The position numbers and the translations under genes were made by a program. A DNA stretch of 64,000 nucleotides from Pristiophorus japonicus (Eukaryota): assembly GCF_044704955.1 (NCBI RefSeq), contig NC_091999.1:29698001-29762000 (forward strand), read 5' to 3'. Below, piece by piece: positions 5,111 to 49,369 of this stretch. The notes beneath the pieces are model-generated. The model was not told the DNA's origin. It made no database searches and saw only the letters and a program-made list of their open reading frames with translations. Numbering within the stretch: the stretch's first letter is position 1; every line of letters starts with the position of its first letter.

Positions 5111-5863
5111 ATTGAAACGGGCCATTTAAGAAGTAAACTTCAAATTAAGCGGATTTTGGAATGGTATTTTATTCGGATTATTAATTGAGTGGCAGGAAGC
5201 AGGCTACTCAAGAGACATGCATATAATTGGATGGAATAGAGCTCAGATCACAGTGCGCTGAAGGACATCGCTCTCACTCAAATGCTGAGAAAATAAGGAA
5301 GACATTCGACTCAATCACGGTTCATTTACAACTTGCATCTTAGAAACTAGACTATGGAAATGCTACCTGTTGAATTATGTGGTAGGCAAGTTTGGAGGGT
5401 ATTTTGCTAACGTCCTAAGCAGGAATTCCGCTGCTCCTTTGAAGTGCAGTCACTGTTGTTTTGTAGGGATACACCACAGGCAATGTGCACAGAGCAAATT
5501 TCCCCAAACTGCAATTAAATAAAGGACAAGAAATGGTGCTCATTGAGAAATAAATGCAGGCCGAAATAACAGGAACACGTCTCTGTTCTGCTATTGCATG
5601 ATCCAATGAAGGCTTCTTTATTGACGAGTTGTGTAAAGGTTCTTGTTGTGTAATGTGATAGAGCTCGGTGATAGAGTAGTGCGTTCCTGACCAGCGCCTT
5701 GACAGGTGCTTACGATAGAACTGACAAAGCTCAAATGCCCGTGTCGCCTTTGATGGAGAAATGGTGGAATTAGTTTATTCTGCAGTCAAATTTCGATTTG
5801 TTTATTTCTTTTATAAGCACGGATTACAGAGTCTAACTTGTTCAATGGGCCATTCCTTCCCAG

Positions 5864-6162
5864 TAACACCGTCTCCCCCATCCTCTGCGCCCTGCTCTCC
5901 TCCTGTGAACAACCCAGCACCGATGGCTCCATCACGTAGGGCTGTTTGGTGATGGGCGACTCCCGTGACATCATCAGCCTTTTCTGGGAGGAAGATAAAG
6001 AGCCGACCACCACTGGATTGAAGACCTACCCGTCATTGCTCAAAAAGAATTGAACGAACACCCTGAGCAGCCAGTTAACCATCACCGAGTCCGAGGTGGG
6101 GAGCAGCACAATCTGCTGCGAAGTTCGACGTGGTGGGTCGCTGTGGAACATCACAATGTCAG
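5864..6162 (+). pseudogene. IGHM: IgM heavy chain constant exon CH1 (shark type), disabled
   Basis: AG acceptor at 5862-63 and GT donor at 6163-64. Translation TPSPP/LCALLSSCEQPSTDGSIT*GCLVM...[47 protein letters not shown] matches shark mu CH1 as recalled ([42 protein letters not shown]). Frameshift near 5880; TAG at 5937; TGA at 6051. Confidence 0.92.
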
Positions 6163-6229
6163 GTTAATGATGTGGGATACAGGGCAAACTGTGATAAGGT
6201 GAGAAGTTATGTTCAATTTGTATCGAAAC

Positions 6230-6535
6230 TTGGTTAGACAATACTTAGAGTACTGTGCATAGTTCTGGTCTCCATATAATACTTAGAATACTGTGCACAG
6301 TTCTAGTTTCCTTATCACATTTAGGATCCTGTTTACAATTCTGGTTTCCATCTCATACTTAGAATACTGTGTAAAGTTCTGTTCTCCATATCATACTTAG
6401 AATAATATGCACAGCTCTGCTCTCCATATCACACTTAGAATACTGTGCATGGTTCTGGTCCCCATATCGCACTTACAATATTATGCACAGTTCTGGTCTG
6501 CATATTACACTGAGTATACTGCGCACAATTTTGCT
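6230..6535 (+). repeat. 38-bp minisatellite (about 8 copies) derived from CR1 ORF2 sequence
   Basis: CTTAGAATACTGTGCACAGTTCTGGTCTCCATATCACA-type unit at 6245, 6282, 6320, 6358, 6396, 6434, 6472 and 6510. The first unit reads LVRQYLEYCA*FWSPY, compared with CR1 LVRPHLEYCVQFWSP at ~60826-60870. Confidence 0.85.
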
Positions 6536-6654
6536 CTCTGCAAATGCCAGGTTAGTGTGGATCTGACAGCAAAGAACTTGTTAAAATATAAGGACACTTT
6601 GCCTTTCTTAATCATTTATTTTGCAAGCAATGTCAATAAAATGCCTTCTCGTGA

Positions 6655-6974
6655 ACGTCCTGAACGGATCATCGTTCCTCCAATTGTTCTTATCTTGCTA
6701 AGCTCCACTGAACAAATCATCTGCAGCAGATATGCAAGCGCCATGTGTTCAATCATCGAATTAAGGCCAAAGTCACTGACCGTGAATTGGCTGAAGAGTG
6801 GACAACTCCTGGATTCGGGCTTCATCACCTCTCCCGCCTATTAGATGAACGGAAACGTTTTGACGGCCAGTCGTCTGACACTCCCCGACAGGGAATGGTT
6901 CACCGGCTCGGTCTACACCTGCCAGGTCACTCATGAAAGGGGCACACAAAGCCGTAACTTCAGCAGATCTCAGG
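6655..6974 (+). pseudogene. IGHM: IgM CH2 exon, disabled
   Basis: [98 protein letters not shown]. In-frame TAG at 6842-44; GTAAG donor at 6975. No AG acceptor at the expected position, so the start is approximate. Confidence 0.9.
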
Positions 6975-7189
6975 GTAAGAGGCACAATCCAGGGAGGTTC
7001 CAGACCATTCTGAGCGCTGATCTCAGTCAGAACTTTGATTGAAATTAGTAGAAAGCAGAAGAATATTCCTAATTCCCAATCATGCAGTTTGTGTATTCTT
7101 GTGATAAAATTTTGCCTTTATACAGCGTCTTCAGCGACCACAGACTGAACCAAAGCGCTTGCCAGGCAATGAATTAAGTTGTGAAATGT

Positions 7190-7535
7190 GGTCACATTTG
7201 TAATGTACAAAGTGCGGCAGTCATTTAGTGCTCAACAAGCTCCCACAAACAGCAGTGTGATAACGACCATTTTTTTTCTTTAGTGTTATTTCTTGAGGGA
7301 TTAATATTCCCAGGCCACCAGGGAGACCTCCTCTGCTTTTCATTGAAATAATTCCAGGGGAACTTTTACCTCCACCTGAGAGGCTAGACGGATTCTTGGT
7401 TTAACACATGATCCGAAATACGGCACCTCCGAAAATGCACCACGCCACCAGTACTGCACTGAGAGACTCAGCTTACATATTGTGATCAAATATCTGGAGT
7501 GGGACTTCAACCCACGATCTTTTGGTTCAGGATTC
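7190..7535 (-). mobile_element. tRNA-headed Deu-domain-type SINE (SacSINE1-like)
   Basis: B-box-like GTGGGACTTCAACCCAC near 7498-7515 and Deu-domain-like core (CCACCTGAGAGG..AGACGG...GGTTTAAC...ATCCGAAA.ACGGCACCTCCGA) on the reverse strand; family name is from memory. Confidence 0.65.
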
Positions 7536-7719
7536 CTCATTGCTCAGGATTTATTAACCTCGCAAAAGAAGCTTTCCCTTGCTCTGGTGTCAGGCAGTGA
7601 GTGAAGTGTCATTAGTCTCAGGTATATCCTGAGTTAGCTGATCATATACGGAATGGCAATAGGAGTCCGGAATCCTTCACTGCTAACTGTCCAGGAACCC
7701 ACTGCAAGAATGGGCATCT

Positions 7720-8240
7720 ACCCTATTCAGAGTACTGAGCCGAATTCTGGGCTCCGCACCTGAGGAAGGATATACGTGGAGGTGCTAAACTGCAGGTTTA
7801 CCCGAATTATACCGGGGCTAATAATGTAAAATGATCAGGTGGTGAGAATAGAACGTTAAGAGATGGTCCAATTGACGTGTTTAAGTTGATAAATGGAATT
7901 GTATCGACTAGATATAGAAACATTTATTTAGTTTGATGGGAGAGTCCAGAACAAGCAGCAGAACCTTAACATTAGAGTTAGGCCGTGCAGAGGTGATGTC
8001 AGAAAGGATTTTCTAACAGGAAGAATAGTGCAAGTCTGGATTTCCCTCCCCAAAAGCTGCTGAAACTTGCTTTCAATTGAAAAGTTGAAAACTGAAATTG
8101 ATAGATTTTTGTTCGGCAAGGTTATCATGGGTTACATAACCAAGGCGTGAAGATGGTGTTGAGTGTTGATCAGCCATGATCTAACTGGATGGCGGGACAG
8201 GATGGATGGGCTGAATGTCCTTCTCCTGTTCCTATGTTGC
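7720..8240 (+). mobile_element. Degenerate CR1 LINE 3' fragment
   Basis: GAGTACTG...TTCTGGGCTCCGCACCTGAGGAAGGATATA (EYC..FWAPHLRKDI) followed by a CR1 3' UTR (GATCAGCCATGATCT...GGGCTGAATG.CCT.CTCCTGTTCCTATGTT). Confidence 0.75.
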
Positions 8241-8945
8241 TATTAATGCCCGGATGTCATAGTGCTTTCTGAATCTCTCTCACCAGACATGATAAATGTT
8301 CAGTAATTACAGATATTAACAAACTACCTCACATCATTACAAATGATGCCCCACCACAAAAGATTCCTTGCAACTCCATTCTCCGGACCTTGCACTTCTC
8401 CTCTGACGGGGGATGTGACTGGTTCCTGCACATTTTCATCGCAACAAAAATAGCAGCAAAAGACTAGAAACTTAACTTTGTTTCCTGTTGTCCCATAAAT
8501 CCTGAAATTAATTTGACACTGGTTTTGAACCAGTATAATGCTGGTGTAGACCTCTTGAACTTGGGGATATTCGGGCTTCAGCTATTATAACCAGTGGAGA
8601 TGCACTTGGGTGCAAGAATCTATAGACAGGCGTAAAGGAGCAAGGGATTTCAGGAAGAGCGCTATTCAGTGCCTATCACAATTGCGTCCCAATGTATTCC
8701 CATTTTACGCCAGGTATTTGCTTCACAGCCCATTACAGGTGGCTCTGGCTCAAATACACAGGAAATATTACAGACCTCCCGGAATCGTTGCCAATTCATT
8801 GTCCTTCCATAACGACGGTGTTCAAGCAATAGCGAGAGGTTGATATCTCAAAAGTGAGTTATTCCCCTTGAAAGAGTTAAGGCTAATTATTGGTGTCCTG
8901 ATTCTGAAGATGCGGCTTTTCCTGACTTTCATTCCTGTTTCGCAG

Positions 8946-9253
8946 TGGATGTCCCATGCAGCGATTAAAAATCACTCTTCGCCCACCGTCACTGGAACAG
9001 GTTTTACTGGAGGCGACGGTGACCTTAACGTGCGTTGTGTCTGACGCTCCTTATGGGCTCACCGTGACCTGGACCCGAAAAAACGAGACTTTGAAATCAG
9101 AGATTGCCGTCCAACACGGAGAGGATCCCAACAGTGTGATCAGCAACTTAAACATCTCGACACAAGAGTGGCTGAGTGGGGATAAGTTCTACTGCGTGGT
9201 GAGCCATCAGGATATGCCGACTCCTCTCAGAGATTCCATCCACAAGGAAAAGG
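8946..9253 (+). pseudogene. IGHM: IgM CH3 exon (open frame, canonical splice sites) of the pseudogene
   Basis: CAG acceptor ends at 8945 and GTGAG donor starts at 9254. [35 protein letters not shown]...[12 protein letters not shown]...[34 protein letters not shown] matches shark mu CH3. Confidence 0.93.
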
Positions 9254-10170
9254 GTGAGCGGGGAGATTGTTGCAATAAGTGATACACTGCGACAATTTCG
9301 ATGCGTGTGCAAGGGCCAATTGATGATATAAAGTGTTTAATGGCTACTCTGATCATTCAGGTTTGTAATTCCACCAACTCAGCACTCTGGGACCTGACAT
9401 TGTGTATTTTAGGGGAAACTGGATAAGTCCATGAGCGAGAAAGAAATAGAAGGGTATATTATTAGGTTTAGATGAAGTGGGCTCGCAGGAGGCTTGTGTG
9501 GATCATAAACACCGGCATAGACCAGTTAGCCAAATCTCCTCGTTCTGTGCATTAAATTCTTTGTCATTTTCCAGTCCAATGCTTCAAGATTTCAGAGAGA
9601 AAGAATACGTTCCCTGGGATAAGGGATGAAAAACCAGAGAGGCAACAGAGGGGAAAAGGAAAAGTGTTAAAATTCAATGCAGTGTCCATTTCTCTCACAT
9701 CTAACCACCGGAAATTGGCTGAATTTAAATGAGGAAGGCGAGTTGTGGGCGTTGGTCTCACAGGCCACCAGTGAAAACGGGAGGATTGGAAGCCGAGTGA
9801 GGAGGTCGCGGATCGCGGGGGGTGGGTTAGGCAGGGACCCTGGATCCAGGAGGTAGGTTTAAGGGCAATTACCACCTGGGAGCAGCAATCCCCACCTTGC
9901 TGTAACTGCTGAGATTTACACAGTGTGTCAAACCGGACCAGCGACTGTTAAACACCAAATGGTGGTTAAAATAGAGGATTCAATTCTCATTTAAATATAT
10001 TACTCAAATATAATATTACAACTGGAAATAGGCGAGTTGAGGTAGGGATTCAAATTTTTACCAATTTAACAACCTCCACGCCCAAAATCCGCCCGCTATA
10101 TTGGGTTGAAATTCCCCCATTGTCTCTGGAACTATCCAGTTCATTGGCCTTTGTTGTAACTGTTCTACAG

Positions 10171-10530
10171 CGAAAGATCCGCGGGAACCAGCCGTGTCTG
10201 TCCTCCTGCCCTCAGCAGAAGTCTCTGCTCAGAGGTTGGTCAGCCTCACCTGCTTAGTGAGAGGTTCTCCCCCCGAAAAATCTTCGTCAAAAAGACCGTC
10301 AATAACAAACTGGTGGATTACGGTCACTACAAGAACACCGAGGTGATGGCGGAGAACGGCGGCAGCTCCTTCTTCATGTGCAGCCTGCTATCCATTGCAG
10401 CCGAGGAGTGGGCCAGAGGCGCCTCTCACACCTGTGTGGTGGGACATGAAGCGATCCCATTGATAATCACCAACAGAACCGTCAATAAATCCAGTGGTAA
10501 AGCATTTCCCTTGTTCTGATGGACACCTTC
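10171..10530 (+). pseudogene. IGHM: IgM CH4 exon plus 5' part of the secretory tailpiece, disabled
   Basis: CAG acceptor ends at 10170. [31 protein letters not shown], frameshift near 10265, conserved Trp lost, then [58 protein letters not shown]. Internal GGTAA donor for TM splicing near 10496. After a short deletion the tailpiece reads ISLVLMDTF and is cut by CR1. Confidence 0.92.
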
Positions 10531-11217
10531 ATAAGAACATAAGAACATAAGAATTAGGAACAGGAGTAGGCCATCTAGCCTCTCGAGCCTGCTCCGCCAT
10601 TCAACAAGATCATGGCTGATCTGGCCGTGGACTCAGCTCCACTTACCCGCCCGCTCCCCATAACCCTTAATTCACTTATTGTTTAAAAATCTATCTTTCT
10701 GTGAATTGAATACATTCAATGAGCTATCCTCAATTCCTTCCCTTTGCAGATAATTCCACAGATTCACAACTCTGTGGGAGAAGAAATACCTTCTCAACTC
10801 GGTTTTAAATTGGCTCCCCTGAGGCTGTGCCCTCTAGTTCTAGTCTCCCCGAGCAGTGGAAACAACCTCTCTGCTCTATCTTGTCTATGCCTTTCATTGT
10901 TTCAAATGTTTCTATCGATCACCCCTCATCCTTCTGAACTCCAACGAGTAAAGACCCACTCTACTCAATCTATCATCATAAGGTAACCCTCTCATCTCCT
11001 GAATCAGCCTCGTAAATCGTCTCTGTACCCCCTCCAAAGCTAGTATATCCTTCCTTAAGTAAGGTTACCAAAACTGCACGCAGTACTCCAGGTGCGGCCT
11101 CACCAATACCCTATACAGTTGCAGAAGGACCTCCCTGCTTTTGTACTCCATCTCTCTGGCAATGAAGGCCAACATTCCATTCGCCTTGCTGATTACCTGT
11201 TGCACCTGCAAACTAAC
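10530..11217 (-). mobile_element. Host CR1 LINE, 3' segment (antisense, inserted in the IgM tailpiece)
   Basis: Starts with (CATAAGAA)n, the reverse complement of the CR1 3' microsatellite tail. Reverse translation near 11217 gives VSLQVQQVISKANGMLAFIARE...LLQLYRVLVRPHLEYCVQFW. Confidence 0.92.
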
Positions 11218-11218
11218 A

Positions 11219-11407
11219 TTAATTGCCGGTGCTTTTAGTGTCCCCCTCCCCTTTTATAGGGGGCACTTGGAGAAAAAATATGTTTTTTGCCCAAAAAAAA
11301 CCCCCAAAAAATACCACCAAAAATAAAAGGGCCTGTAAATGTTTGGTGTTTCCCCCAGATCGGGGGGGGGGTACGGTTTAATGTTTTTTGTTTACTCCCA
11401 AAAAGAG
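11219..11407 (+). mobile_element. Tx1-clade element, 3'-UTR-only fragment (unit 0 of the array)
   Basis: TTAATTGCCGGTGCTTTTAGTGTCCCCC...TTTACTCC.AAAAGAG matches the last ~160-190 bp of each full copy (18319-18475, 25459-25631, 32633-32786). Confidence 0.9.
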
Positions 11408-11425
11408 TTTCATGCACAAGGACCA
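11408..11425 (+). repeat. Junction repeat / putative target-site duplication copy 1 (TTTCATGCACAAGGACCA)
   Basis: The same motif recurs at 18476-18492, 25632-25649 and 32787-32804. The last copy is continuous with the host CR1 ORF2 and reads VLVHE on the minus strand. Confidence 0.88.
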
Positions 11426-12349
11426 ATGATGGAGCTTTGGAGGCGTGGCCTATGCACTTGGAGCCTGGCTGCTGTGAGAGAAGGAACTCCCTGCTTTAGC
11501 TTCTGTTTGGAAGGCCTGGAGTTAGCCCTGAGACCAGCCCAGGAACAGGAGGTAGGAAGGGGCTTCATTACCATTCATCTAGAGTGAGAGGAGGAGAGCC
11601 GAAGACTGCAACACCTTCATTATTTCAACAAAGAGTTGGAAAGAGGTGGAAAAAAGAACAACAACTTACCAGTGTGGAAGGAGGGAAAGACTTCTTCAGC
11701 CAAAGGTGGGTGTGTTTTGGTGCATTCACCAAAAAGACTTTGTTGTATCGGTGGGGGGAGGAAAGAAGACCAATCGAGGGCCAGAACATCGCGGGGGTGT
11801 GTGTGTGTGTGTGGAAGTGTGTGTGGGGGTCTTGCCTACAGCTAGGCCCACACACCACTGAAGCACCCCTCACCCAATTGCCTAGCCTGGGATAGCTGGA
11901 GCAACCAGGCTGAAGAAACTGAATCACCCTAATTAACATCGTTGGGAGTGTGTACCTGTGTGGCTCCAGCTGCCCCAGGTGAAGACATCTTCTCCCCCCA
12001 CCCGAAGATCACCCCAAAGACTGTTTTGTTTGCCATCTGGGGAATGCACCCACCCATTACTGTGAGGGGAGACCTGCCCTTGCAGCCTCCCTCTTTCCCA
12101 CACCCCATCACTCTGTCTCTCTCTCTGTCTCCCCCCTCTCTCTCTGAGAGCCTTTCCTCCCAATTGGAAAAAAAAGACAAGAACAATTAAGACAACTGAG
12201 CAGAGGGAGCAAGGCCCCTCCCCAATTGCAAACTAGGGGAGAGCAGTGCCTCTTTCAGAGCTGCCGCTGTTAAATACTTAAACGAGGCCAGTTAAGACCA
12301 TTAAGGCATGTGACTTTGGGGTGGGTGTCGCCCTTAAAGGGACCCCGTG

Positions 12350-14403
12350 ATGGCGACACCATCCACGCCGGTGGCAGGGCCAGCTAGGAATTATGTGCAG
12401 GCGGCGTCCACATCCACGGCACCTCCTACGCCTCCTGCTGACCTGCCACCATTCGGACTGATAACTAAAAAACACGGGGTCAAGGGCTACACTCACCCCA
12501 AAATGAGCATTGAGGAGTGCGCGCGGGCGATGGCTGGGGTAGTCGGCCCCTCGGCCATTGTCGCAGCCTCCAAGATGTCTGGGAAGGCTGTGTTCTTCCT
12601 GGGGTCGGAGCGACCGGTGTCCCTGGCCCTTGAAAAGGGGCTCACGGTGGGCGGGACGTTCCTGCCGGTGGACCCTCTCGAGGCCACCGCGCAGAGGGTC
12701 ATCATTTCAAACGTCCCGCCCTTTGTACCCGCTGAGCTCCTCCTCCCTCACCTACAACAACTGGGGGAGGTAAGGTCGGGTATCAACCCCATACCGCTCG
12801 GCCTCAGGGAGAACAGCCTGCGCCATGTGCTCTCCTTCCGCCGCCAGCTCTTTGACCGGCAGGCGCGGGAGGAGACGACGGAGGGCAATGCTAATGTGGT
12901 GCACGAGGGGACTGCCTACCGCAACTTCTGGACGTCGGATGGCGTGCGGTGCCATGCCTGCAGAGAGGTGGTGCATGTTCGCAAGAACTGCCCCGCCAAC
13001 AAGGCTGCCAAACCACCGAGGGCGTCCAAGGCTGGCGCCGCCGCCACCCCTCCCTCTAGTAGCGTCCGCTTGCCGGGAGCCGTAGGTGCGCGGGCATCGC
13101 CGGAGGCCTTTGTTTTCACGGCCGGAAAGAAGGCGCGGAAGAAGGCGAAACATCCCCTCGGTGCGCCAAACAACTTGTTTGCCGCGCTCGGCCAAACCCC
13201 GTCAGCTGCGAGCGCGGGGTGCCCTGAGCCGGTGCCCGAGCCCTTGACTAGTATCACAGAGGGGTTCGGGCGTGGGCAAGACAAGAAAAAGGGGGGAGTG
13301 GAGCGGGAGGCCTCGGCAGGCATGGGGGTCTCCCTGCCTCCGCGCACCCCCAGGAAAAAAAGGAGGCGTCGCTCCAATGAGATGGAGGGAGAACAACATC
13401 CCTCCGCGGAGGAGGCGGTGCCCGCCGCGTGTCCCGCGTCCCCCACCAGCGCCCCCAAGCTGCGCTGTAGGCGAGAGGAATCTGTCCCCGGGGAGGGTGA
13501 GGCAGTCGAGGCTGCCCAGCCGCTGCCTCCCGGGGATGACGTGGAAGATCTGCCTGTCGTGGGGGGCGTGGGGCCAGCGGAAGAATCCGTAGCCGCCGGG
13601 TCGAGCATCCCGGGGACTGAGGCGTGCGAGGACGAAAAGGCCGAACCTGAGCCCGCCCAGCAAATACCCAACTTGCCCCGGGATTTGCTCGACTCGGCAG
13701 AAGCTGACACTGCAGACAACTGTAATATACATCCACACGCTGGGCCGGGGGGTGGCGGCGGGAGGGGGAAGAACAACAACCCTCGCCCCCTACTTTGGAG
13801 CTGAGGGGCTTGGTGGACCTGGAGAATTTTCGTAACCAGGTCTCTCCGTGTTCCCCGGCTCCTGGGGCGGGGGAGGACCCCCTTCCGCTGTCGCCTCCCG
13901 ACCCAGCACCACTTTTAAAAGAGCTCAGTGGGGACTCCTCTGCCGACGATCCTGGGGGTGGGATCGGGGCGGAGCCAGGGCCGGATGGAGCGGCCGGGCC
14001 GTTTGCCGTACCTCGTGCGGTCGACGGGCCGGCTGCTTGCGGCGACCTCCCGGAGGGGGACGGAGACTGGGTGGGGGACGCAGGAGAAGATCTAGAGACC
14101 ATCGCCAGTGAGGCGGTGGATCTGCTCGCGGCCGCCGCTGAGACCCTCCTCATTCCTGTAAAGGAACTCCGGGACTTTTTGGTCCAGTGCCGGGGTCGCC
14201 GCGACCAAGCCCGTCTGGCCCTGGAAAGATGGTCTGAGCCAGTGTTGCTCGTCGCTTCCGTCCGCGCCGCAGCTAAAACCATGGCCGCGGGCGGGCCCTT
14301 ATCAAGAGCGCAAGGCCTTGAGCTGCGCCGGCTCAACGGGTTCCTCGCTGGGCTGCTGAAGGAGTGGAGGTCAACAAACGACTCCACTCCCCCCCCACAA
14401 TAG
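12350..14403 (+). pseudogene. Tx1 ORF1 (ZCCHC3/Tx1-ORF1-like with zinc knuckle), copy 1, frameshifted
   Basis: LITKKHGVK...SIEECARAMAGVVGPSAIVAASKMSGKAVFFL...ISNVPPFVP; knuckle CHACREVVHVRKNC; long Pro/Ala/Glu-rich tail; frameshift near 13765. Confidence 0.88.
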
Positions 14404-14433
14404 GTTAGGTAGAGGTTGCTCTATGCTTTTGCC

Positions 14434-17400
14434 ATGAAGATAACCATAGCCAGCCTCAACATCAACGGCGGCAGAGAGGCACGCCGTAGATTTGACAATT
14501 TTTCGCTCATGTGGGAGGGGAAATATGCGGTGTGCTTCCTGCAAGAAACCTACACCGTTCCGGGAGATGAAGCCACGTGGCTCCTGGAATGGCAAGGAGA
14601 GGTCCGCATGAGGCACCTCACTATCACTTCTAGTGGGGTGGCCATCTTGTTGGCCCCGCATTTTCAGCCGGAGATCTTGGGGGTCGAGGATCCCCTTCCA
14701 GGCCGCTTGCTGCACGTAACGGTTCGCCTGGGGGACGTGCCACTCCATCTCGTGAACGTGTACGCCCCTCAGCACGGCCAACAGCAAGTGCGCTTCTTCG
14801 AAGAAGTGTCCGCTCTTCTTGGCTCCGTCGACGTCGGCGACTGCATTGCCCTGTGGGGGGAATTTTAACTGCACCCTCGAGGCGATGGACCGCTCCAGTG
14901 CCCCGCAGAGCATGACGGTGATGGGGAAGTTGAGGGACCTGGTCGGGTCCTTCGACTTGGTGGACGTCTGGCGAAATCTCCATCCCGACTCCAGCGCCTT
15001 TACTTGGGTGAGGCCTGGAGTAGGATGGTCCAGAGTCGACCGCGTTTACGTGTCTCGGGCATACGTTTCCTGCGTCCTGGCGGCCTCCATGCGGCCGGTG
15101 CCGTGTTCGGACCACCACCTGGTGTGGGCGGAGCTCGCTTCGCTCCGCACGAGAACGGGGTCCGCGTACTGGCATTTTAACACCCGGCTGCTGGAGGACG
15201 TGCGGTTCCAGGACTCGTTCCGTCGTTTCTGGGCCGACTGGAGAAGGAAGCAGGGAGGCTTCCCCTCCTTGAGGCTATGGTGGGACGTGGGCAAGGCTCA
15301 CGTCCGTGTCTTCTGTCAAGAGTACGCGAGGGGGTCGACCAAGAGGCGGGCGGCCAGGGTTGGGCGCCTAGAAAAAGAGGTGCTCGACCTAGGGTCCCAT
15401 CTCAGTCAAGTCGTCGGGGACTCGGCCCTGCGGACGGTGTAAAAAGCGAAGAAGGCCGCGCTGAAGCACCTGCAGCTCGTCGGGTCCCGAGGCCAATTCG
15501 TAAGGTCGCGGATCCGGTTCCTGCGGGATCTGGACTGCGGCTCCCCCTTCTTCTACTCACTGGAAAAAAGACAGAGTGTCCGTAAGCAGCTCTTGACGCT
15601 GCTGGCCGATGACGTCTCTCTCGTCTCGGATCCGGAGGGCGTCAGCAACAGGGCCCGTGAACATTACGGGGCTCTGTTCTCTCCGGAGCCGTCCAGCGAG
15701 GAAGCGCATAGAGTTTTGTGGGAGGACCTGCCAAAGGTCATCCCGGAAGGCGCCGAAAATCTGGAAGTTCCGCTAAGCCTGGCGGCGCTGACCGGTGCCG
15801 ACCAGCTCTCGAGGGGAAAAGCCCCGGGGCTGGACGGGCTGACCGTGGAGTTCCACAGGGCGTTCTGGGACGTCCTGGGGGGTGACTACGCGCGGGTCCT
15901 GGGGGAAAGTCTGGTGACCGGGGAGATGCACCTCTCTTGGCGCAGGGCAGTCATCGTCCTGCTGCCTAAGAAGGGCGATCTCCGCCTCCTTAAGAACTGA
16001 CGCCCGGTCTCGCTCCTCAGCACAGACTACAAAATCTTCGCCAGGGTGATGTCTGCTCGCCTTGGTGCCGTGCTGGACCACATGATCCACCCCGACCAGT
16101 CCGACACGGTCCCGGGCCGGACAATCCACGATAACATCCATCTGGTCCGGGACCTCATCCATCATTCCCAGGAGGCTGGTCTGTCGGTCTCCTTCCTATC
16201 CCTCGACCAAGAGAAGGCGTTCGACAGGGTGGATCACGACTATCTGCTCGGAACTCTGCGCGCTTTCGGGTTCGGGATGCATTTCGTCGCCCAGATCTGA
16301 CTATTGTACGCTGCCGCGGAATGTCTGATTCAGGTTAACGGGTCCTTGACGGCGCCCCTTCGCTTTGGGAGAGGGGTGCACCAGGGATGCCCCATGTCCA
16401 GCCAGTTATATGCCATCTGCATGGAGCCTTTCCTGCACCTCCTGCGATGAGTTTGACGGGACTGGCTCTGCAAGGGCCGGGCGTGGAGGTCGTCCTCTCG
16501 GATTACGCCGATGACGTGCTCCTCGCGGTAGAGGATCCCGCTGACCTGCGGAGGATGCGTGAGTGCCAGGAGATTTACTCAGCTGCATCCTCCGCCAGAA
16601 TCAATTGGGAGAAATGCTCCGGACTCCTGGTGGGTCAGTGGCGGGTGGACTCCCTGCCGGAGGAGCTCAGGCTTTTTGCCTGGAGCACGACCCATCTCCT
16701 CTATCTGGGAGTCTACCTTAGCCCCGACGAGGAAGTGTGGGTGGCGAACTGGCAGGAGCTGGAGGCCAAGGTCGCCGCTCGCCTAGGCCGCTGGACAGGA
16801 CTGCTCCGAGTGCTGTCCTACAGCGGTCGAGCGCTAGTCATAAACCAGCTGGTGGCCGCCATGTTATGGTACCGGCTGGTCACTTTGACCCATCCCCCTA
16901 CGTTTGTCGCCAAGATACAGAAGAAGCTGGTGGACTTCTTCTGGAACAACAGGAAGCACTGGGTCTCTGCCGCGGTCTTGAGTCTCCCGCTTGGGGAGGG
17001 CGGTCAGTCGTTGGTGCGCGTCAGCGCGCAGCTCGCGACTTTCCATCTTCACGTCGAGCCTCCTCCTAGGTCGCGTGCTCTGGCAATGTATTTCTTTCGC
17101 CATCAGCACGGCCCCAACTACGACACGCAGCTCCTGTTTGTGAGTGTGGGGGGCGTCAGGACCGCCCTCCGGGAGCTGCCTGTCTTTTACAAGGAACTCA
17201 TCAGGGTCTGGAACAGAGTCTCCAGCAAGCCCAGCTCTGCACCAGCTGGAGTGGCGGCCGTCCTGCAGGAGCCGCTGCTCGCGAATCCGTACCTCCACGA
17301 CCGAGGTTTTTTGTGGCGGTCGGATGAGAAGGCTGTGGCTGGTGAGGTGACCAGGGTCCGGGACCTGCTCGATGGTGGAGGAGCGGGCTGCATGGCACCA

Positions 17401-18308
17401 GACCGCTGGCGCGGCGCCTAAATTCTGCCAACGTCCGCAACGAGGCCGATGCCATCGAGTCGCTAAAAAGAGCTCTGGGCCCTGACTCCGTTTGGTGCAT
17501 CGAGGAGGCTCAAGCACGTGGGGAGAGCCCTTCCGAACTGACCCCCGTCCGGACGGAATTCCTCCTTGGCGCCAAACCCCGGAACCTCCCTCGGGAGCAG
17601 GCGCCTCACAACTTGAGCCGCCCCGGGGAAATCCCCTCCGTGCCTTTCAGTTCCGCACGGAGGGGTTTCCTGTACGGGCTGCTCCTGCACACTCTCAACT
17701 TTGCCAACCTCGCCTGCCTTCCGGACACGCCATGGCGTACCATCTTGCCGTCCGGAGGAGGCGGGGGTCACCGATGGAGGGCACTCTACGCAGGCGTCCT
17801 CCCAGTATTTATCGGGGACTTGGCCTGGAGGGTGGTGCACGGAGCAATCCCGTGCAATAAATTTTTAAGCCGGTTCACGGGCTCCCAGGCCGCTTGCAAT
17901 TTCTGCCGCCTAGAAGAGTCCGTCTTCCATGTTTTTATTGAGTGCACGAGGTTGCAGTCCCTGTTTTGTTATTTAAAGGGGCTGCTCCTGAAATTCTGGC
18001 TGCACTTCAGTCCCACACTCCTGATCTTCGGGCGCCCTGTGCGGAGGGGAGCGGGTAGGTCCGAGGGCCTCCTCGTAGGACGGCTCCTGGGCACGGCCAA
18101 GGGGGCCATCAGCCGGTCCAGGCAGCGGGCGGTCGTGGGGGTCGTTCAGCCAGACTGCCTGCCTCTCTTCCGCGCATACATCCAGTCCAGGCTGTCCTTG
18201 GAGATGGAGCACGCGGTGTCCACTGGTACGCTCGCGGCCTTCCACGAGAGGTGGGCACCGGAGGGACTGGAGTGCATCATCACGCCTGGCAACCAAGTTT
18301 TAATTTGA
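14434..18308 (+). pseudogene. Tx1 ORF2 (APE endonuclease - RT - zf-RVT), copy 1, multiply disrupted
   Basis: MKITIASLNING, FLQET, NVYAP, SDH (APE domain); PGLDGLTVEF, SLDQEKAFDRVDH, YADD (RT); CNFCRLEESVFHVFIEC. Several stops and frameshifts. Confidence 0.93.
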
Positions 18309-18492
18309 CTTTATGTGTTTAATTGCCGGTGCTTTTCGTGTCCCCCTCCCCTTTTGTAGGGGGCACTTGGATAAAAATTCAATTCTGTGCCCAAAAAAAA
18401 AAGGACATTGTAAATGTTGGTGTTTCCCCCAGATCGGGGGCACGGTTTAATGTTTTTTGTTTACTCCTAAAGGAGTTTATGCACAAGGAACA

Positions 18493-21400
18493 ATGGTGGC
18501 GCTTTGGAGGCGTGGCCTATTCACTTGGAGCTGTGCTGCTGAGAGAGAAGGAACTCCCTGCTTTGCTCCTGTCTGGGAGGCCTTGAGTGAGCCCTGAGAC
18601 CAGCCCAGGAATAGGAGGAGGAAGGAAGGGGCTATATTACCATTCATCCAGAGGGATAGGAGGAGAGCAGAAGACTGCAACAACTTGATTAATTCTACAA
18701 AGTGTTGGAGAAAGGGGGAAAAAACAACTGTGTGGAAGGAGGGAAAGACTTCTTCAACCAGAGGTGGGTGTGTTTTGGTGCATTCCCCAATAGACTTTGT
18801 TGTATCGGTGGGGGGAGGAAAGAAGACCTATCGAGGGCCGGAACATCGCGGAGGGTGTGTGTGTGTGTGTGGAAGTGTGTGTGGGGGTCTTGCCTACAGC
18901 TAGGCCCACACTCCACTGAAGCACCCCTCCCCCATTGCCTAGCCTGGGATAGCTGGAGCTACCAGGCTGAAGAAACTCAATCACCCTAATTAACATGGTT
19001 GGGAGTGTGTACCTGTGTGGCTCCAGCTGCCCCAGGTGAAGACATCTTCTCCAGCCACCCGAAGACCACCCCAAAGACTGTTTTGTTTGACATCTGGGAG
19101 TGCACCCACCCATTGCTGTGAGGGGAGACATGCTCTCGCAGCTTCCCTCTTTCCCATCCCCCCTCTTCCTCTATCTCTCTCTCTCTGTCTCTCCCCTCTC
19201 TCTCTGAGAGCCCTTTCCTCCTAATTAAAATAAACAAACAATTAAGACAACTGAGCAGAGGGAGCAAGGCCCCTCCCCAACTGCCAACTAGGGGAGAGGT
19301 GTGCCTCTTTCAGAGCTCCCTCTGTTCAAATATTTAAACGAGGCCATTTAAAACCATTAAGGCCTGTGACTTTGGGCTGGGTGTAGCCCTTAAAGGGACC
19401 CCGTGATGGCGACCGCATCCACGCCGGTGGCAGGGCCAGCTAGGGCATATGCGCAGGCGGTGTCCACATCCACGGCACCTCCTGCGCCTCCTGCTGCCCT
19501 GCCACCATTCAGACTGATAACTAAAAAACACGGGGTCAAGAGCTACACTCACCCCACAATGAGCATTGAGGAGTGCGTGCGGGCGATGGCTGGGGTAGTC
19601 GGCACTTCGACCATTGTCGCAGCCTCCAAGATGTCTGGGAAGGCCGTGTTCTTCCTGGGATCGGAGCGGGCGGTGTCCCTGGCCGTCGAAAAGGGGCTCA
19701 CGGTGGGCAGGACGTTCCTGCCGGTGGACTCTCTCGAGGCCACCGCGCAGAGTGTCATTCTATCGAACGTCCCGCCCTTTGTTCCCGCTGAGCTCCTCCT
19801 CCCTCACCTACACCAACTGGGGGAGGTAAGGTCGGGGATCAACCCCATGCCGCTCGGCCTCAGGGAGAACAGCCTGCGCCATGTGTTCTCCTTCCGCCGC
19901 CAGCTCTTTGTCCGGCTGGCGCGGGAGGAGACGATGGAGTGCAATTTTAATGTGGTGCACGAGGGGACTGCCTACCGCGTCTTCTGGACGTCGGACGGCG
20001 TGCGGTGCCATGCCTGTAGGGAGGTGGGACACGTTCGCAAGAACTGCCCCGCCTCCAAAGCCGCCAAACCACCGAAAGCGGCCAAGGCTGGCGCCGCCAC
20101 CACCCCTCCCCCTAGTTGCGTCCGCGTGCCGGGAGCTGTAGGTGCGCGGGCATCGTCGGGGGCCTTTGTTTTCACGGCCTCCGGCGGGGGGGAGGGAGAG
20201 CGTCCGACCGGAAGGAAGGCGCAGAAGAAGACGAAACATCTCGAGGCGGGTCCCTTCGGTGCGCCAGACAATCTGTTTATTGCGCTCAGCCCAACCCCGT
20301 CACCGGCGAGCGCGGGGTGCCCTGAGCCCGTGCCCGAGCCCTCGATCAATACCGCAGAGGGGTTCGGGCGCGGACATGATAAGTAAAAGTGGGGAGTGGA
20401 GCAGGAGGCCTCGGCAGACATGGGGGTCTCCTTGCCTCCGCTCACTCCCAGGAACAAAAGGAGGCGCTGCTCCAATGAGGCGGAGGGGGAACAACATCCC
20501 TCCGTGGAGAAGTCGGTGCCCGCCGCGTGTCCCGCGTCCCCCACCAGCGCCCCCAAGCTGCGCTGTAGGCGAGACGAGTCTGTCCCCGGGGAGGGTGAGA
20601 CAGTCGAGGCTGCACAGCCGCTGCCTCCCGGGGATGGCGTGAAAGTTCTGCCTGTCGTGGGGGGCGTGGGGCCAGCGGAAGAATGTGTAGCCGCTGGGTC
20701 GAGCGTCCCGGGGACTGAGGCGGGCGGGGCCGAAAAGGCCAAACCTGAGCCCGCCCAGTCAATACCCAACTTCCCCCGGGATTTGCTCGACTCGGCAAAA
20801 ACTGACACTGCAGACAACTGTAATATCCATCCACACGCTGGGCCGGGGGGTGGCGGTGGGGAGGGGGAAGAACAACAACCCTCGCCCCCTACTTTGGAGC
20901 TGAGGGACTTGATGGACCTGGAGAATTTCCTAAACCAGGTCTCTCCATGTTCCCCGGATGTTGGGGCGGAGGAGGAACCCCTTCCGCTGAAGCTTCCCGA
21001 CCCAGCACCAATTTTAGAAGAGCACAGTGGGGACTCCTCTGCCGACGATTCTGGCGGTGGGATTGGGGCAGAGCCAGGGCCAGATGGAGCGGCCGGGCCG
21101 TTTGCCGTATCTCGTGCGGTCGACGGGCCGGCTGCTAGAGGCAACCTCCCGGAGGGGGACGGGGACTCGGTGGAGGACGCGGGAGAAGATCTAGAGTCCA
21201 AAGCCAGTGAGGCGGTGGATCTGCTCGCGGCCGCCGCTGAGCCCCTCCTCATTCCTGCAAAGGAACTCCGGGACTTTTTCGTCCAGTGCCGGGGTCACCG
21301 CGACCAAGCCCGTCTGGCCCTGGAAAGATGGTCCGAGCCGGGGCTGCTCGTCGCGTCCGTCCGCGCCGCCGCTAAAACCATAGCCGCGGGCGGGCCCTTA

Positions 21401-24400
21401 TCAAAGGCTCAAGGCCTTGAGCTGCGCCGGCTCCAAAAGTTCCTCGCTGGGCTGCTGAAGGAGTGGAGGTCAACAAACGACTCCACTCCCCCTCCCACAA
21501 TAAGTTAGGTAGAGGTTGCACTATGCTCTAGTCATGAAGATAACCATAGCCAGCCTCAACATCAACGGCGGCAGAGAGGCACGCCGTAGATTTAACAATT
21601 TTTCGCTCCTGCGGGAGGGAAAATATGTGGCGTGCTTCCTGCAAGGAACCCACACCGATCTGGGAGACGAAGCCACGTGGCTCCTGGAATGGCAAGGAGA
21701 GGTCCGCATGAGCCACCTCACCGCCACTTCGAGTGGGGTGGCCATCATGCTGGCCCCGCGGTTTCAGCCGGAGATCTTGGGGGTCGAGGAGCCCGTGCCA
21801 GGCCGCTTGCTGCACGTAACGGTTCGCCTGGGGGACGTGCCGCTCCATCTCGTGAACGTGTACGCCCCTCAGCCCGGCCCGCAGCAAACGCGCTTCTTCG
21901 AATAGGTGTCCGCTCTTCTTGGCTCCGTCGACGTCGGCGACTGCATTGTCCTCGGGGGGGATTTTAACTGCACCCTCGAGGCGAGGGACCACTCCGGTGC
22001 CCCGCAGAGCATGACGGCGATGGAGAAGTTTAGGGACCTGATCGGGTCCTTCGACTTGGTGGACGTCTGGCGAAATCTCCACCCAAACTCCAGCGCTTTT
22101 ACTTGGGTGAGGCCTGGAGTAGGATGGTCCAGAGTCGACCGCGTTTACGTGTCTCGAGCGTACGTTTCCTGCGTCCCGGCGGCCTCCATGCGGCCGGTGC
22201 CGTGTTCGGACCACCAACTGGTGTGGGCGGAGCTCGCTTCGCTCCGCGCGAGGACGGGGTCCGCATAGTGGTATATTATCAACCAGCTGCTGGAGGACGT
22301 ACGGTTCCAGGACTCGTTCCATCGTTTCTGGGCCGACAGGAGAAGGAAGCAGGGGGGCTTCCCCTCCTTGAGGCTATGGTGGGACGTGGGTAAGGCTCAC
22401 GTCCGCGTCTTCTGTCAAGAGTACGCGAGGGAGTCGACCAAGAGGCGGGCGGCCAGGGTCGGGCGCCTAGAAAAAGAGGTGCTCGAACTGGAGTCCCGTC
22501 TCGGTCAAGTCGTTGGTTCCCCGGCCCTGCGGACGGTGTACAAAGCGAAGACGGCCGCGCTGAAGGACCTGCAGCTCGTCGGGTCCCGAGGCGCGTTCGT
22601 GAGGTCGCGGATCCGGTTCCTGCGGGATCTGGACCGCGGCTCCGCCTTTCTTCTAGTCGCTGGAAAAAAGAGAGGGTGTCCGTAAGCAGATCTTGACGCT
22701 GCTGGCCGACGACGGTTCTCTCTCTCGGATCCGGAGGGCGTCAACAACAGCGCCCGTGAATATTACGGGGCTCTGTTCTCTCCGGATCCTTCCAGCGAGG
22801 AAGTGCATAGAGTTTAGTGGGAGGACCTGCCGAAGGTCAGCCCGGAGGGCGCCGAAAATCTGGAAGCTCCGCTAAGCCTGGCGGAGCTGACCGGTGCCCT
22901 CGACCGGCTCTCGAGGTGAATAACCCCCGGGGCTGGACGGGCTGACCGTGGAGTTCCACAGGGCGTTCTGGGACGTCCTGGGGAGCGACAACGCGCGCGT
23001 CCTGGGGGAAAGTCTGGCGAGCGGGGAGATGCCCCTCTCTTGGCGCAGGGCAGTCATCGTCCTCCTGCCTAAGAAGGGCGATCTCCACCTCCTTAAGAAC
23101 TGGCGCCCGGTCTCCCTCCTCAGCACGGACAACAAAATCATTGCCAGGGCGAAGTCTGCTCGCCTTGGTGCCGTGCTGGACAACATGATCCACCCCGACC
23201 AGTTCTACACGGTCCCGGGCCGGACAATCCACGATAACATCCATCTGGTCCGGGACCTCATCCATCATTCCCAGGAGGCTGGTCTGTCGGACGCCTTCCT
23301 ATCCCTTGACCAAGAGAAGGCGTTCGACAGGGTGGATCACGACTATCTGCTCGGAACTCTGCGCGCTTTCGGCTTCGGGACTCATTTCGTCACCCGGATC
23401 CGACTTTTGTACGCCACCGTGGAGTGTCTGATTAAGGTTAACGGGTCCTTGACGGCGCCCCTTCGCTTTAGGAGAGGGGTGCGCCAGGGATGCCCCATGT
23501 CCGGCCAGTTATATGCCGTCTGCGTGGAGCCTTTCCTGCGCCTCTTGCGGACGAGGTTGACGGGACTGGCTCTGCAAGGGCCGGGCGTGGAAGTCGTCCT
23601 CTCGGCTGATGCCGATGATGTGCTCCTCGCGGTAGAGGATCCCGATGACCTGCGGAGGATGCGTGAGTGCCAAGAAATTTACTCGGCTGCATCCTCCGCC
23701 AGAATCAACTGGGAGAAATATTCCTGACTCCTGGTGGGTCAGTGGCGGGTGGACGCCCTGCCTGAGGAGCTCAGGCCTTTTGCCTGGAGCACGACGCATC
23801 TCCTCTATCGGGGAGTCTACCTTAGCCCCGACGAGGGAGCCTGGCCGGCGAACTGGCAGGAGCTGGAGGCCAAGGTCGCCGCTCGCCTAGGGCGCTGGAC
23901 AGGACTGCTCCGAGTGCTGCCCGACAGGGGTCGAGCGCTAGTCATAAACCAGCTGGTGGCCGCAATGCTGTGGTACCGGCTGGTCACTTTGACCCCTCCC
24001 CCTGCGTTTGTCACCAAGATCCAGAAGAAACTGGTGGACTTCTTCTGGAACAACAGGAAGCACTGGGTCTCTGCCGCGGTCTTGAGTCTACCGCTTGGGG
24101 AGGGCGGTCAGTCTGTGGTGTGCGTCAGCGCCCAGCTCGCGACATTCCATCTTCAGACCCTGCAGAGATACCTTTACGTTGAGCCCCCTCCTCGGTGGCA
24201 TGCTCTGGTGATGTATTTCTTCCGCGAGCAGCACGGCCTCAACTACGACACGCAGCTCCTGTTTGTGAGTGTGGGGGGCGTCAGGACAGCCCGCCGGGAG
24301 CTGCCTGTCTTTTACAAGGAACTCATCAGGGTCTGGAACAAAGTCTCCACCAAGCGCAGCTCTCCACCAGCTGGAGTGGCGGCCGTCCTGCAGGAGCCGC

Positions 24401-25631
24401 TGCTCGGAAATCCGTACCTCCACGACCAAGGTTTTAGGTGGCGGTCGGACGAGAGGGCTGTGGCTGTTGAGGTCACCAGGGTCAGGGACCTGCTCGATGG
24501 CGGAGGAGCAGGCTGGATGGCGCCAGACACGCTGGCGCGGCGTCTAAATTCTGCCAACGCCCGCTAAGCGGCCGATGCCATCGATCGCTAAAAACAGCTC
24601 TGGGCCCCGACTCCTTTAGGTGCATCGAGGAGGCTCAAGCACGTGGGGAGATCCCGTCTGAACTGACCCCCGTCTGGACGGAATTCCTCTTTGGCGCCAA
24701 ACCACGGAACCTCCCTTAGGAGCAGGCGCCTCACAACTTGTGCCGCCTCGAGGAAATCTCCTCCATGCCTTTCAGTTCCGCGCGGAGGGGTTTCCTGTAT
24801 GGGCTGCTCCTACACACTCTCAACTTTGCCATCCTCGCCTGCCGTCCTTACACGCCATGGCGTACCATCTTGCCGTGCGGAGGAGGCGGGGGTCCTCGAT
24901 GGAGGGCACTCTACGCAGGGGTCCTCCCACTATTTGTCGGGGACTTGGCCTGGAGGGTGGTGCACGGAGCAGTGCCGTGCAATAAATTTTTAAGCCGGTT
25001 CACGGGCTCCCAGGCTGCCTTCAATTTCTGCGGTCTGGAAGAGTCCGTGTTCCATGTTTTTATTGAGTGCACGTGGTTGCAGCCCCTGTTCTGTTATTTA
25101 AAGGGGCTGCTCCTGAAATTCTGGCTGCACTTCAGTCCCACACTCCTGATCTTCGGGCACCCTGTGCGGAGGGGAGCGCGTAGGTCCGAGGGCCTCCTCG
25201 TAGGACTGCTCCTGGGCACGGCCAAGTGGGCCCTCAGCCGGTCCAGGCAGCAGGCGGTCGAGGGGTTCGTTCAGCCAGACTTCCTGCCTCTCTTCTGCGC
25301 ATACACCCGGTCCAGGGTGTCCTTGGAGATGGAGCACGCGGTGTCCACCGGTACGCTCGCGGCCTTCCGTGAGAGGTGGGAACCGAAGGGACTGGAGTGC
25401 ATCATCACGCACGGCAACCAAATTTTAACTTGATTTTATATTTTTAAGTTCATTTGTTTTAATTGCCGGTGCTTTTAGTGTCCCCCTTGGCTTTTATAGG
25501 GGGTACTTGGAAAAAAAATTGATTCTGTGCCCCAAAAAAACCCCAAAAATTAAAAAAAGGGACTTGTAAATGTTGGTGTTTCCCACAGATCGGGGGGCAC
25601 GGTTTAATTCTTTTGTTTACTCCTAAAAGAG
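18493..25631 (+). mobile_element. Tx1-clade element, full-length copy 2 (~7.14 kb, disabled)
   Basis: Colinear with copy 1. ORF1 19406-21508 (CHACREVGHVRKNC; stop at 20384-86). ORF2 21534-25433 has several stops, and YADD is mutated to DADD. Confidence 0.93.
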
Positions 25632-25649
25632 TTTGATGCACAAGGACCA

Positions 25650-28600
25650 ATGGTGGAGCTTTGGAGGCGTGGCCTATTCACTTGGAGCTGTGCTGCTGAG
25701 AGAGAAGGAACTCCCTGCTTTGCTCCTGCCTGGGAAGCCTTGACTGAGCCCTGAGAACAGACCAGGAATAGGAGGAGGAAGGAAGGAGCTTCATTACCAT
25801 TTATCCAGAGTGAGAGGAGGAGAGCAGAAGACTGCAACACCATTATTATTCCTACGAAGAGTTCGAGAGAGGGGAAAAAAAAAGAACAACAACTTACCAG
25901 TGTGGAAGGAGGGAAAGACTTCTTCAACCAGAGGTGGGCGTGTTTTGGTGCATTCACAAAAAATACTTTGTTGTATCGGTGGGGGGGAGGAAAGAAGACC
26001 AATCGAGGGCCGGAACATCGCGGGGTGTGTGTGTGTGTGTGTGTTGAAGTGTGTGTGGGGGTCTTGCCTACAGCTAGGCCCACACACCACTGAAGCACCC
26101 CTCCCCCATTGCCTAGCCTGGGATAGCTGGAGCTACCTGGCTGAAGAAAGTCAATCACCCTAAATAACATCGTTGGGAGTGTGTACCTGTGTGGCTCCAG
26201 CTGCCCCAGTTGAAGACATCTTCTCCACCCACCCGAAAACCACCCCAAAGACTGTTTTGTTTGACATCTGGGGAGTGCACCCACCCATCGCTGTGAGGGG
26301 AGACCAGCCCTCGCAGCTTCCCTCTTTCCCACCCCGCCTGGCTCTTTCACTCTTTCTCTGTCTCTCCCCTCTCTCTCTGAGAGCCCTTTCCTCACAAGTG
26401 AACAAAAACAAGAACAATTAAGACAACTGAGCAGAGGGAGCAAGGGCCCTCCCCAATTGCCAACTAGGGGAGAGGAGTGCCTCTTTCAGAGCTTCCTCTG
26501 TTCAAATGCTTAAACGAGGCCATTTAAGACCATTAAGGCCTGTGACTTTGGGGTGGGTGTAGCCCTTAAAGGGACCCCGTGATGGCGACCCCATCCACGC
26601 CGGTGGCAGGGCCAGCGAGGACATATGCGCAGGTGGCAACCGCTTCCACGGCACCTCCTGTGCCTCCTGCTGCCCTGCCACCATTCAGACTTATAGCCAA
26701 GAAGCACGGGGTCAAGAGCTACACTCCCCCCACAATGAGCATTGAGGAGTGCGTGCGGGCGATGGCTGGGGTAGTCGGCCACTCGGCCATTGTCGCAGCC
26801 TCCAAGATGTCTGGGAGTGCCGTGTTCTTCCTGGGGTCGGAGCGGGCGGTGTCCCTGACCATTGAAAAGGGGCTCACGGTGGGCGGGACCTTCCTGCCGG
26901 TGGACCCTCTCGAGGCCACTGCGCAGAGGGTCATCATTTCAAACGTCCCGCCCTTTGTTTCCGCTGAGCTCCTCCTCCCTCACCTACACCAACTGGGGGA
27001 GGTAAGGTCGGGGATCAACCCCATACCGCTCGGCCTCAGGAAGAACAGCCTGCGCCATGTGTTCTTCCGCCATCAGCTCTTTGTCCGGCTGGCGCGGGAG
27101 GAGACGACGGAGGGAAGTTTTAATGTGGTGCACGAGGGGACTGCCTACCGCGTCTTCTGGACGTCGAACCGCGTGCGGTGCCATGCCTGCAGGGAGGTGG
27201 GGCACGTTCGCAAGAACTGCCCCGCTTCCAAAGCCGCCAAACCACCGAGGGTGGCCAAGGCTGGCGCCGCCGCCACCCTCCCCCAAGTAGCGTCCACGTG
27301 CCGGAAGCTGTAGTTGGGCGGGCATCGTCGGAGGCCATTGTTTTCACGGCCTCCGGCGGCGGGGAGGGAGAGCGTCCGACCGGAAAGAAGGCACGGAAGA
27401 AGACGAAAGATCTAGAGGCGGGACCCCTCAGTGCGCCAGACAACCTGTTTACCGCGCTCGGGCCAACCCCGTCACCGGCGAGATGGGGGGTGCCCTGAGC
27501 CCGTGCCCGAGCACTTGACCAGTATCACAGAGGCGCTGGGGCGCGGGCAAGAAAAGAAAAAGAGGGGGGTGGAGCGGGAGGCCTCGGCAGACATGGAGGT
27601 CTCCCTGCCTGCACGCCCTCCCAGGAACAAAAGGAGGCGCCGCACCAATGAGGCGGAGGGGGAACAACATCCCTCCGCGGAGGAGTCGGTGCCCGCCGCG
27701 TGTCCCGCGTCCCCCACCAGCGCCCCCAAATTGCGCTGTAGGCGGGAGGAATCTGTCCCCGGGGAGGGTGAGGCAGTCGAGGCTGCCAGGCCTCTGCCTC
27801 CCGGGGATGGTGTGAATGATCTGCCTGTCGTGGGGGGCGTGGGGCCAGCGGTGGAATGCGTAGCCGCCGGGTCGAGCGTCCCCGGGACTGAGGCAGGCGG
27901 GGCCGAACAGGTCGAACCTGAGCCCGCCCAGCTTTTAATTATCTGCCCCCTAGAGTCGCTCGGCCCAGAAGAAACTGAAAATGGATTAATTTTAACGATT
28001 CTGTACACGCTGGGCCGAGGGGTGGCGGCGGGGAGGGGGAAGAACAACAACCTTCGCCACCAACTTTGGAGCTGGGGTACTTGGAGGACCTGGAACATTA
28101 CTTTGACCAGGTCTCTCCGTGTTCCGCGGTACCTGGGGCGGAGGAGGAACCCCATCCGCTGTCGCTTCCCGACCCAGTACCAATTTTACAAGAGCCTAGT
28201 GGGGACTCCTCTGCCGACGATCCTGGGGGTGGGATCGGGGCAGAGCCGGGGCCAGATGGAGCGGCCGGGCTCTTTGCCGTACCTCGTGCGGTCGAGGGGC
28301 CGGCTGCTGACGGCGACCTCCCGGAGGAGGACGGGGACTCGGTGGAGGACGCGGGTGAAGATCTCGAGTCCATCGCCAGTGAGGCGGTGGATCTCCTCGT
28401 GACCGCCGCTGATTCCCCCCTCATTCCCGTAGAGGAACTCCGGGACTTTTTGGTCCAGAGCCTGGGTCGCCGCAACCGAACCCATCTGGCCCGGGAAAGA
28501 TGATCCGAGCCGGGGCTGCTCATCGCTTCCGTCCGCACCGCCGCTAAAACCATGGCCGCGGGCGGGCCCTTATTAAAGGCGCAAGGCCTTGAGCTGCGCC

Positions 28601-47615: not shown

Positions 47616-47679
47616 ATTCCATGCTCTGAGTAAAATAAACGATAGCACGGCGTGTGACTATCTGCATGGCATTGGTCGC

Positions 47680-49273: not shown

Positions 49274-49279
49274 TATAAA
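49274..49279 (+). promoter_or_regulatory. Putative TATA box of the GPCR gene
   Basis: GGCTATAAAT about 95 bp upstream of the ATG at 49370. Confidence 0.5.
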
Positions 49280-49369
49280 TAGGTGTTTTTTCAGCCTGTA
49301 TAGCAATGTTTGACTGAAGTTGTTGTCTAAAACGAACAGTTCTCATTGGAGGTCACAGAAAGTCAAATC

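Follow-up and report, generated by a model that had tools for sequence, protein, structure and literature searches.

A severely 5'-truncated Tx1-clade insertion at the left edge of a LINE array in Pristiophorus japonicus, and how stacked LINE copies may acquire their 5' ends

Three Tx1-clade copies and a short tag interrupt a CR1-like LINE

We analysed a stretch of 64,000 nucleotides from Pristiophorus japonicus, referred to throughout as the window. Three head-to-tail LINE copies of 7.1 kb, ~92% identical over their whole length, fill positions 11423-32787 and are preceded by a short segment, the tag. This array interrupts, in antisense orientation, another LINE, which we take to be CR1-like from its 3' repeat tail and which is 70-74% identical to the window's other LINE at 59533-61410 (APE and RT). 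The array sits downstream of Ig heavy-chain constant exons, in a much-duplicated IgH-type cluster. The features are as follows.

~6660-6975 and ~10140-10497, further CH-like exons, upstream of the array
8946-9253, + strand, Ig heavy-chain constant exon (C1-set; PF07654, E 4.6e-10; exon limits approximate)
10528-11219, - strand, host CR1-like LINE, 3' part, left of the insertion; stops 7 bp short of the target
11219-11408, + strand, tag, a severely 5'-truncated Tx1 insertion without left target-site duplication (TSD)
11409-11422, + strand, 14-bp TSD of the host target between tag and copy 1
11423-18475, + strand, Tx1 copy 1, full length, ORFs decayed, begins CCAAT
18476-18489, + strand, TSD (mutated) between copies 1 and 2
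18490-25632, + strand, Tx1 copy 2, full length, decayed
25633-25646, + strand, TSD (mutated) between copies 2 and 3
25647-32787, + strand, Tx1 copy 3, full length, decayed, with RVT_1 and zf-RVT matches
32788-33954, - strand, original target (32788-32801) and the continuing host CR1-like ORF2

By eye, some of the Ig heavy-chain constant exons at 5860-10497 carry in-frame stops, as in a pseudogene cluster. Several minisatellite arrays lie at 45500-51700 and 56433-57204, among them one with a 62-bp unit, ~98% identical, that comes just before the LINE at 57.4-61.4 kb.

The element inserts at a 14-bp site of its host LINE

An intact young relative (L095), to whose array copy 3 is ~90% identical, has ORFs of 699 and 1299 aa. 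A Pfam search with ORF1 queries gave no match. The 1299-aa ORF2 contains APE, RT and a C-terminal zinc finger (zf-RVT) and is closest to Tx1: it is 49% identical over 100% of its length to ORF2 of Tx1L of Xenopus laevis (YTX2_XENLA), an element with the same two-ORF, APE, RT and zinc-finger organisation. The units of the array are separated by the 14-mer TTCATGCACAAGGA (11409-11422), which a preliminary description of this DNA had called the junction motif. This motif contains no element sequence; it is the empty host target, duplicated on insertion, and is present as 24,407 exact empty sites genome-wide, together with 14,553 exact junctions of the element 3' end with the TSD and 6,088 right-end junctions. 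When 101 distinct filled left junctions were classified by a crude script, the TSD was called whole in 77, partial in 10 and absent in 14, the latter two classes including at least three junctions with a TSD on inspection and three that are paralogues of the tag. As in target-specific Tx1 families, the element enters a defined sequence, with a constant 3' junction and a TSD. From these sequence comparisons, we assign the element to the Tx1 clade as a LINE whose insertions fall on a single 14-bp site within a CR1-like LINE.

A flank search for paralogues of the locus returned 141 candidates, and most of the 40 that were scored lie on contig 23. Thirty paralogues, the window included, could be classified, 10 as empty and 20 as filled. 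All ten empty paralogues (L244, L246-L248, L253, L254, L256, L260, L264 and L266) carry a C-to-G change inside the 14-bp target, and they may have stayed unfilled because of this variant base. They thus represent a natural test of endonuclease specificity.

Several related units were observed elsewhere. A sister Tx1 family (L288-L317, L318) has a 5' end like that of copy 1, occupies the homologous site of another CR1-like family and shows a different, shorter TSD. Units in L019, L033, L060 and L200, inside the same arrays, seem by eye to be headed by a tRNA and to end in a Tx1 3' tail; they look like SINE-like or template-switch chimeras. Finally, a nine-unit young array with intact ORFs is present at L091-L097 (G000:C1 9.71-9.77 Mb), in which units 6-8 are without differences, reflecting recent duplication or an assembly artefact, and the other units are mosaics.

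The tag is an independent insertion and not a terminal repeat of the array

When aligned, positions 11219-11425 matched the 3' end of each copy of the array, which bore out the earlier observation that a 3'-UTR segment and the junction motif precede copy 1, except that the last three bases of this piece (CCA) already belong to the start of copy 1. The tag comprises 190 bp of Tx1-clade 3' UTR, is of the older A-type defined below and starts ~25 nt past the ORF2 stop. The reported absence of the motif at the extreme left end was likewise confirmed. Host sequence missing there had been estimated at ~9 bp; comparison with the ten empty paralogues showed that exactly 7 bp were lost, with 1 bp of microhomology, as base 11219 is common to tag and host.

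It had also been proposed that the array begins with a copy of its own 3' end, in a pseudo-LTR architecture. The tag, however, differs from copies 1, 2 and 3 at 14/156, 14/171 and 8/152 aligned bases, respectively, plus 21-40 gap columns, and is 94-97% identical to non-paralogous copies elsewhere. Counting gaps, its identity to the end of copy 3 is 77%, so that the near-identical terminal repeats of an LTR-like element are lacking. These results support the first of two models put forward for the tag, in which an independent and severely 5'-truncated copy inserted at the same target. As truncated insertions go, the tag is an ordinary one, and the pseudo-LTR idea, once tested, is ordinary as well.

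The second model invoked behaviour like that of HeT-A and TART, in which transcription starting in the 3' UTR of an upstream neighbour provides each new copy with a terminally redundant tag. The head-to-tail architecture fits this model, a neighbour lies upstream of most full-length copies of the family (48/60), and HeT-A itself starts transcription 31-93 nt before the junction, inside its upstream neighbour, in the portion of PMC1636488 used here. The model predicts a constant tag, and the proposed check was made at 90 full-length 5' ends, the first 30 matches of each of three patterns (195, 1,629 and 148 matches). In this sample 31/90 ends were without a tag and sat on host sequence. Among the 60 same-family ends, in which the classes of L133 and L047 were reassigned by eye, host sequence with a TSD lay upstream in 12, units of 22-1413 bp in 25 and more than 1.5 kb in 23; in the third set of 30, 28 of which belong to the sister family with the other target, 19 were on host. 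Upstream tags at other loci therefore vary in length, between 22 bp and >1.5 kb, and do not share a start point, and copies 2 and 3 carry no tag of their own. Furthermore, full-length copies begin with CCAAT immediately after the TSD (n = 114; no extra base in 102, an A in 9 and a G in 3), so that the defining feature of HeT-A, a start 31-93 nt inside the upstream neighbour, would not apply here. A HeT-A/TART-like origin of the tag is thus highly improbable. Positions 11000-12500 were also compared with Rfam in search of a ribozyme at the 5' end, with no match at E ≤ 1.

The fixed start also disposes of a suggested marker. An A in GGACCA had been thought potentially private to this host copy, and hence a sign that the duplications arose in situ. 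This rests on a misreading, since the A is the element's own start (CCAAT genome-wide), and it was rejected as a mark of in situ duplication. In the right host flank an A occurs in the window and in 1/6 paralogues whose right junction was fetched.

Copies 1-3 inserted independently and were later reshuffled by unequal crossover

In situ duplication of copies 1-3 was considered and rejected. The identity of the copies is ~92% throughout, and neighbours have only 6/197 and 14/203 array-private alleles in common; because so few are shared, we conclude that the copies are independent insertions.

Unequal crossover among the paralogues, after insertion, is nevertheless real. In seven fetched paralogues the number of units was 3, 4, 2, 1, 1, 1 and at least 3. 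In one paralogue an additional unit, copy 2 at its front and copy 1 at its back, stands between copies 1 and 2; in three, the only unit combines the front of copy 1 with the back of copy 3. The direct repeats bounding the array had been proposed as the substrate for such exchange. That crossover occurs was therefore correct, with 1-4 units and chimeras as its products, but it runs through the homology of the 7-kb units and not through the 200-bp repeats. A solo tag, the product of recombination between the terminal repeats, was found in 0/20 filled paralogues, and this route was rejected.

Arrays grow mainly at the 5' TSD

The order in which units arrived was assessed from array-private ORF2 mutations. 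Of 35 arrays, 26 had more of these in the right-most unit than in the left-most one, 3 had fewer and 6 were tied (sign test p = 1.5e-5). The tails gave the same polarity. Two types are present, a young B-type (mostly 0-2% ORF2 divergence between arrays) and the older A-type (mostly 3-8%). A young B-type tail was found upstream of an old A-type 5' end at 7/30 loci, two of which are duplicates of each other, and the reverse arrangement at 0/30, 23 of these loci having an upstream unit. Likewise, among 67 pairs of adjacent tails, B was followed by A in 5 and A by B in none. Exceptions do occur. Exact junctions of an A-tail with a TTG-start numbered 7, of which at least one (L163) has a B-like start, versus 29 junctions of an A-tail with a TGG-start, 11 of them on contig 23. 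In addition, 3/35 arrays were of opposite polarity, and units in L184 and array C6 seem to have inserted internally. Taken together, these results showed that the arrays grow mainly at the 5' TSD, with polarity as a bias and not a rule. This is the R1-type pattern, in which units separated by TSDs are added at the 5' TSD, here as a strong bias with exceptions. In the text of Stage and Eickbush (PMC2718515) drawn on here, R1 arrays grow by insertion into the 5' TSD, and no insertions are described upstream of copies without a 5' TSD.

Since growth favours the 5' TSD, the tag was probably the last insertion event at our locus and not the first, and the site would likely be closed to further insertion, as the tag destroyed the left TSD. 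From the genome-wide polarity, copy 3 was likely the first insertion; private-mutation loads at the locus itself are flat across copies 1-3 (2.33, 2.40 and 2.44%). An opposite history, with the tag first and each of copies 1-3 then entering in turn at the TSD on the tag's right (3') side, would agree with the apparent occurrence of some internal or right-side insertion and with the finding that all filled paralogues carry the tag (tag-less, 0/20). However, it requires three successive uses of the disfavoured side, against the 26:3 polarity and the 0/23 and 5:0 subtype orders, and we consider it decidedly unlikely.

We also weighed two other origins. A single cDNA, made by read-through of a donor array and cut short within the upstream unit, could have brought in the tag and copy 1 at once, or a later deletion could have reduced a longer unit to the tag. 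Either would explain why the left end alone has a truncated unit and why the TSD is absent. Among the left junctions examined, L047 is the only other one to have lost several host bases on the upstream side of the nick, and its host deletion is far larger. Both proposals are weakened by the presence of truncated units at every array position. Co-arrival is further opposed by the lack of any non-paralogous tag joined to a copy-1 start among the first 30 of 148 copy-1-like starts, and the one exact-variant start outside contig 23 among the first 100 matches listed sits tag-less on host. Co-arrival or deletion is accordingly unlikely, and a separate, late insertion of the tag is preferred.

Neighbouring truncated units share their exact 5' breakpoints

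Truncated units were sampled from the first matches on contig 1 of an internal-junction pattern (1,096 matches). Nine loci that overlapped or duplicated others were left out, as were units shorter than 100 bp and those of full length. In this sample, 50/67 adjacent truncated pairs, in 29/40 arrays, start at the same exact base, compared with 30/6,671 cross-array pairs. The tag, with its own breakpoint, belongs to the less common class (17/67 pairs differ in start). Short tags are also repeated in cis ahead of units with different tails (L209, L157/L158).

Duplication of a neighbour followed by mutation was rejected as the general cause. The last 150 bp differ in 49/50 of the start-sharing pairs, and 650/985 ORF2 differences between start-sharing neighbours are variants also present in other arrays. 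Median divergence was 1.22% between neighbours and 1.69% from outside copies; only 8/37 neighbours were closer to each other than to every outside copy, and only 27/191 resident-private alleles were shared, concentrated in a few pairs. Most tracts copied from a resident would consequently have to be short. A minority are true duplications or long copies of kilobases, as in units 6-8 of the array at C1 9.7 Mb, L213 and L219. For most pairs, then, starts are shared while tails and variants differ, which indicates that the newcomer derives from a different RNA yet has the start point of the resident.

Two further observations concern the left junctions. At L085:478-1509 (oriented), a TSD, 64 bp of element, ~50 bp of host and a second TSD are followed by element from the same start; this repeated junction looks like an aborted and re-primed second strand. 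Some truncation points (reference positions 6609, 6900, 6937, 6893 and 6709) recur in unrelated arrays, which likely reflects microhomology with the TSD end.

Discussion

Our main reading, to which we give a probability of about 0.8, is that the 207-bp piece represents the 3' end of a fourth Tx1 copy, severely 5'-truncated, that likely arrived last by entering the TSD on the left side of copy 1, and that its 7-bp host loss without a new TSD likely closed the site.

Pairing between the incoming cDNA and the resident copy is the best reading of the shared starts. In the mechanism that we propose, target-primed reverse transcription would begin at a nick made by the endonuclease at the left margin of the TSD. 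The new cDNA would usually pair with the homologous resident copy next door and be trimmed or extended to the resident's 5' end, the TSD being copied again, so that the newcomer would acquire the start point of the resident and keep its own body and tail. Less often, as for the tag, early end-joining of the cDNA would produce a unit with its own truncation. L1 chimeras reportedly form with endogenous copies. We favour, with some reserve, the general view that at an occupied target most new Tx1 insertions are completed by such pairing, with the resident dictating the 5' end. Thousands of CR1 sites would then have become polarised, time-ordered stacks that record how LINE 5' junctions and truncations are made in vivo, and a stub that destroys the TSD would end its stack.

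Target-specific Tx1 families and TSD-separated tandems are already known, as set out in portions of two earlier reports (PMC4494074; PMC5932611). The target-specific Tx1 clade includes Keno, Tx1-Mar, Kibi and Koshi. In the text of PMC4494074 used here, the targets named are DNA transposons, LTR elements, snRNA and 5S genes, satellites and microsatellites, with no LINE among them, and tandem SINEU-3 copies sandwich a TSD. The present family resembles that clade in targeting another mobile element and in its tandems, and departs from it in that the target is ORF2 of a CR1-like LINE, in antisense. Among titles and abstract openings, we found neither a CR1-targeting or LINE-targeting Tx1 element nor shared truncation points in tandems; target lists in supplements may bear on the former.

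Drosophila R1, although of a different clade and with a different target, is similar in its 14-bp TSD between units, its growth at the 5' TSD and the absence of insertions upstream of TSD-less copies, as stated in the sections of PMC2718515 cited above. A double insertion seeds R1 arrays, which then expand, according to part of PMC5932611. R1 dimers are described with distinct 5' truncations in the text available to us, whereas most neighbours here share the exact truncation point. The proposed pairing resembles the 'anneal' junctions of R2/PRINT, in which, according to the relevant part of PMC11331408, the cDNA 3' end pairs with homologous target DNA to give a precise 5' junction. In that case the homologous sequence is upstream rDNA carried by the RNA; in ours the resident element, on the downstream side of the nick, would provide it. 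HeT-A and TART arrays are likewise polarised and head-to-tail, and they gain new units on the 5' side. In contrast to these, our arrays have no constant upstream tag, have host TSDs between units and occupy an endonuclease-type internal target that is non-telomeric.

To what was known, the locus adds empty-site paralogues, the rejection of a pseudo-LTR model, a measured polarity and a crossover series. One LINE here uses another as a renewable landing site, and in a duplicated IgH-type cluster the resulting stacks alter copy number by unequal crossover. The findings further bear on the open question of how non-LTR elements form their 5' junctions and why they are truncated. A single breakpoint is common to neighbours that differ in age and in source RNA. 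This suggests that the homology available at the joining step sets the truncation, and that fall-off of the reverse transcriptase is not its only cause.
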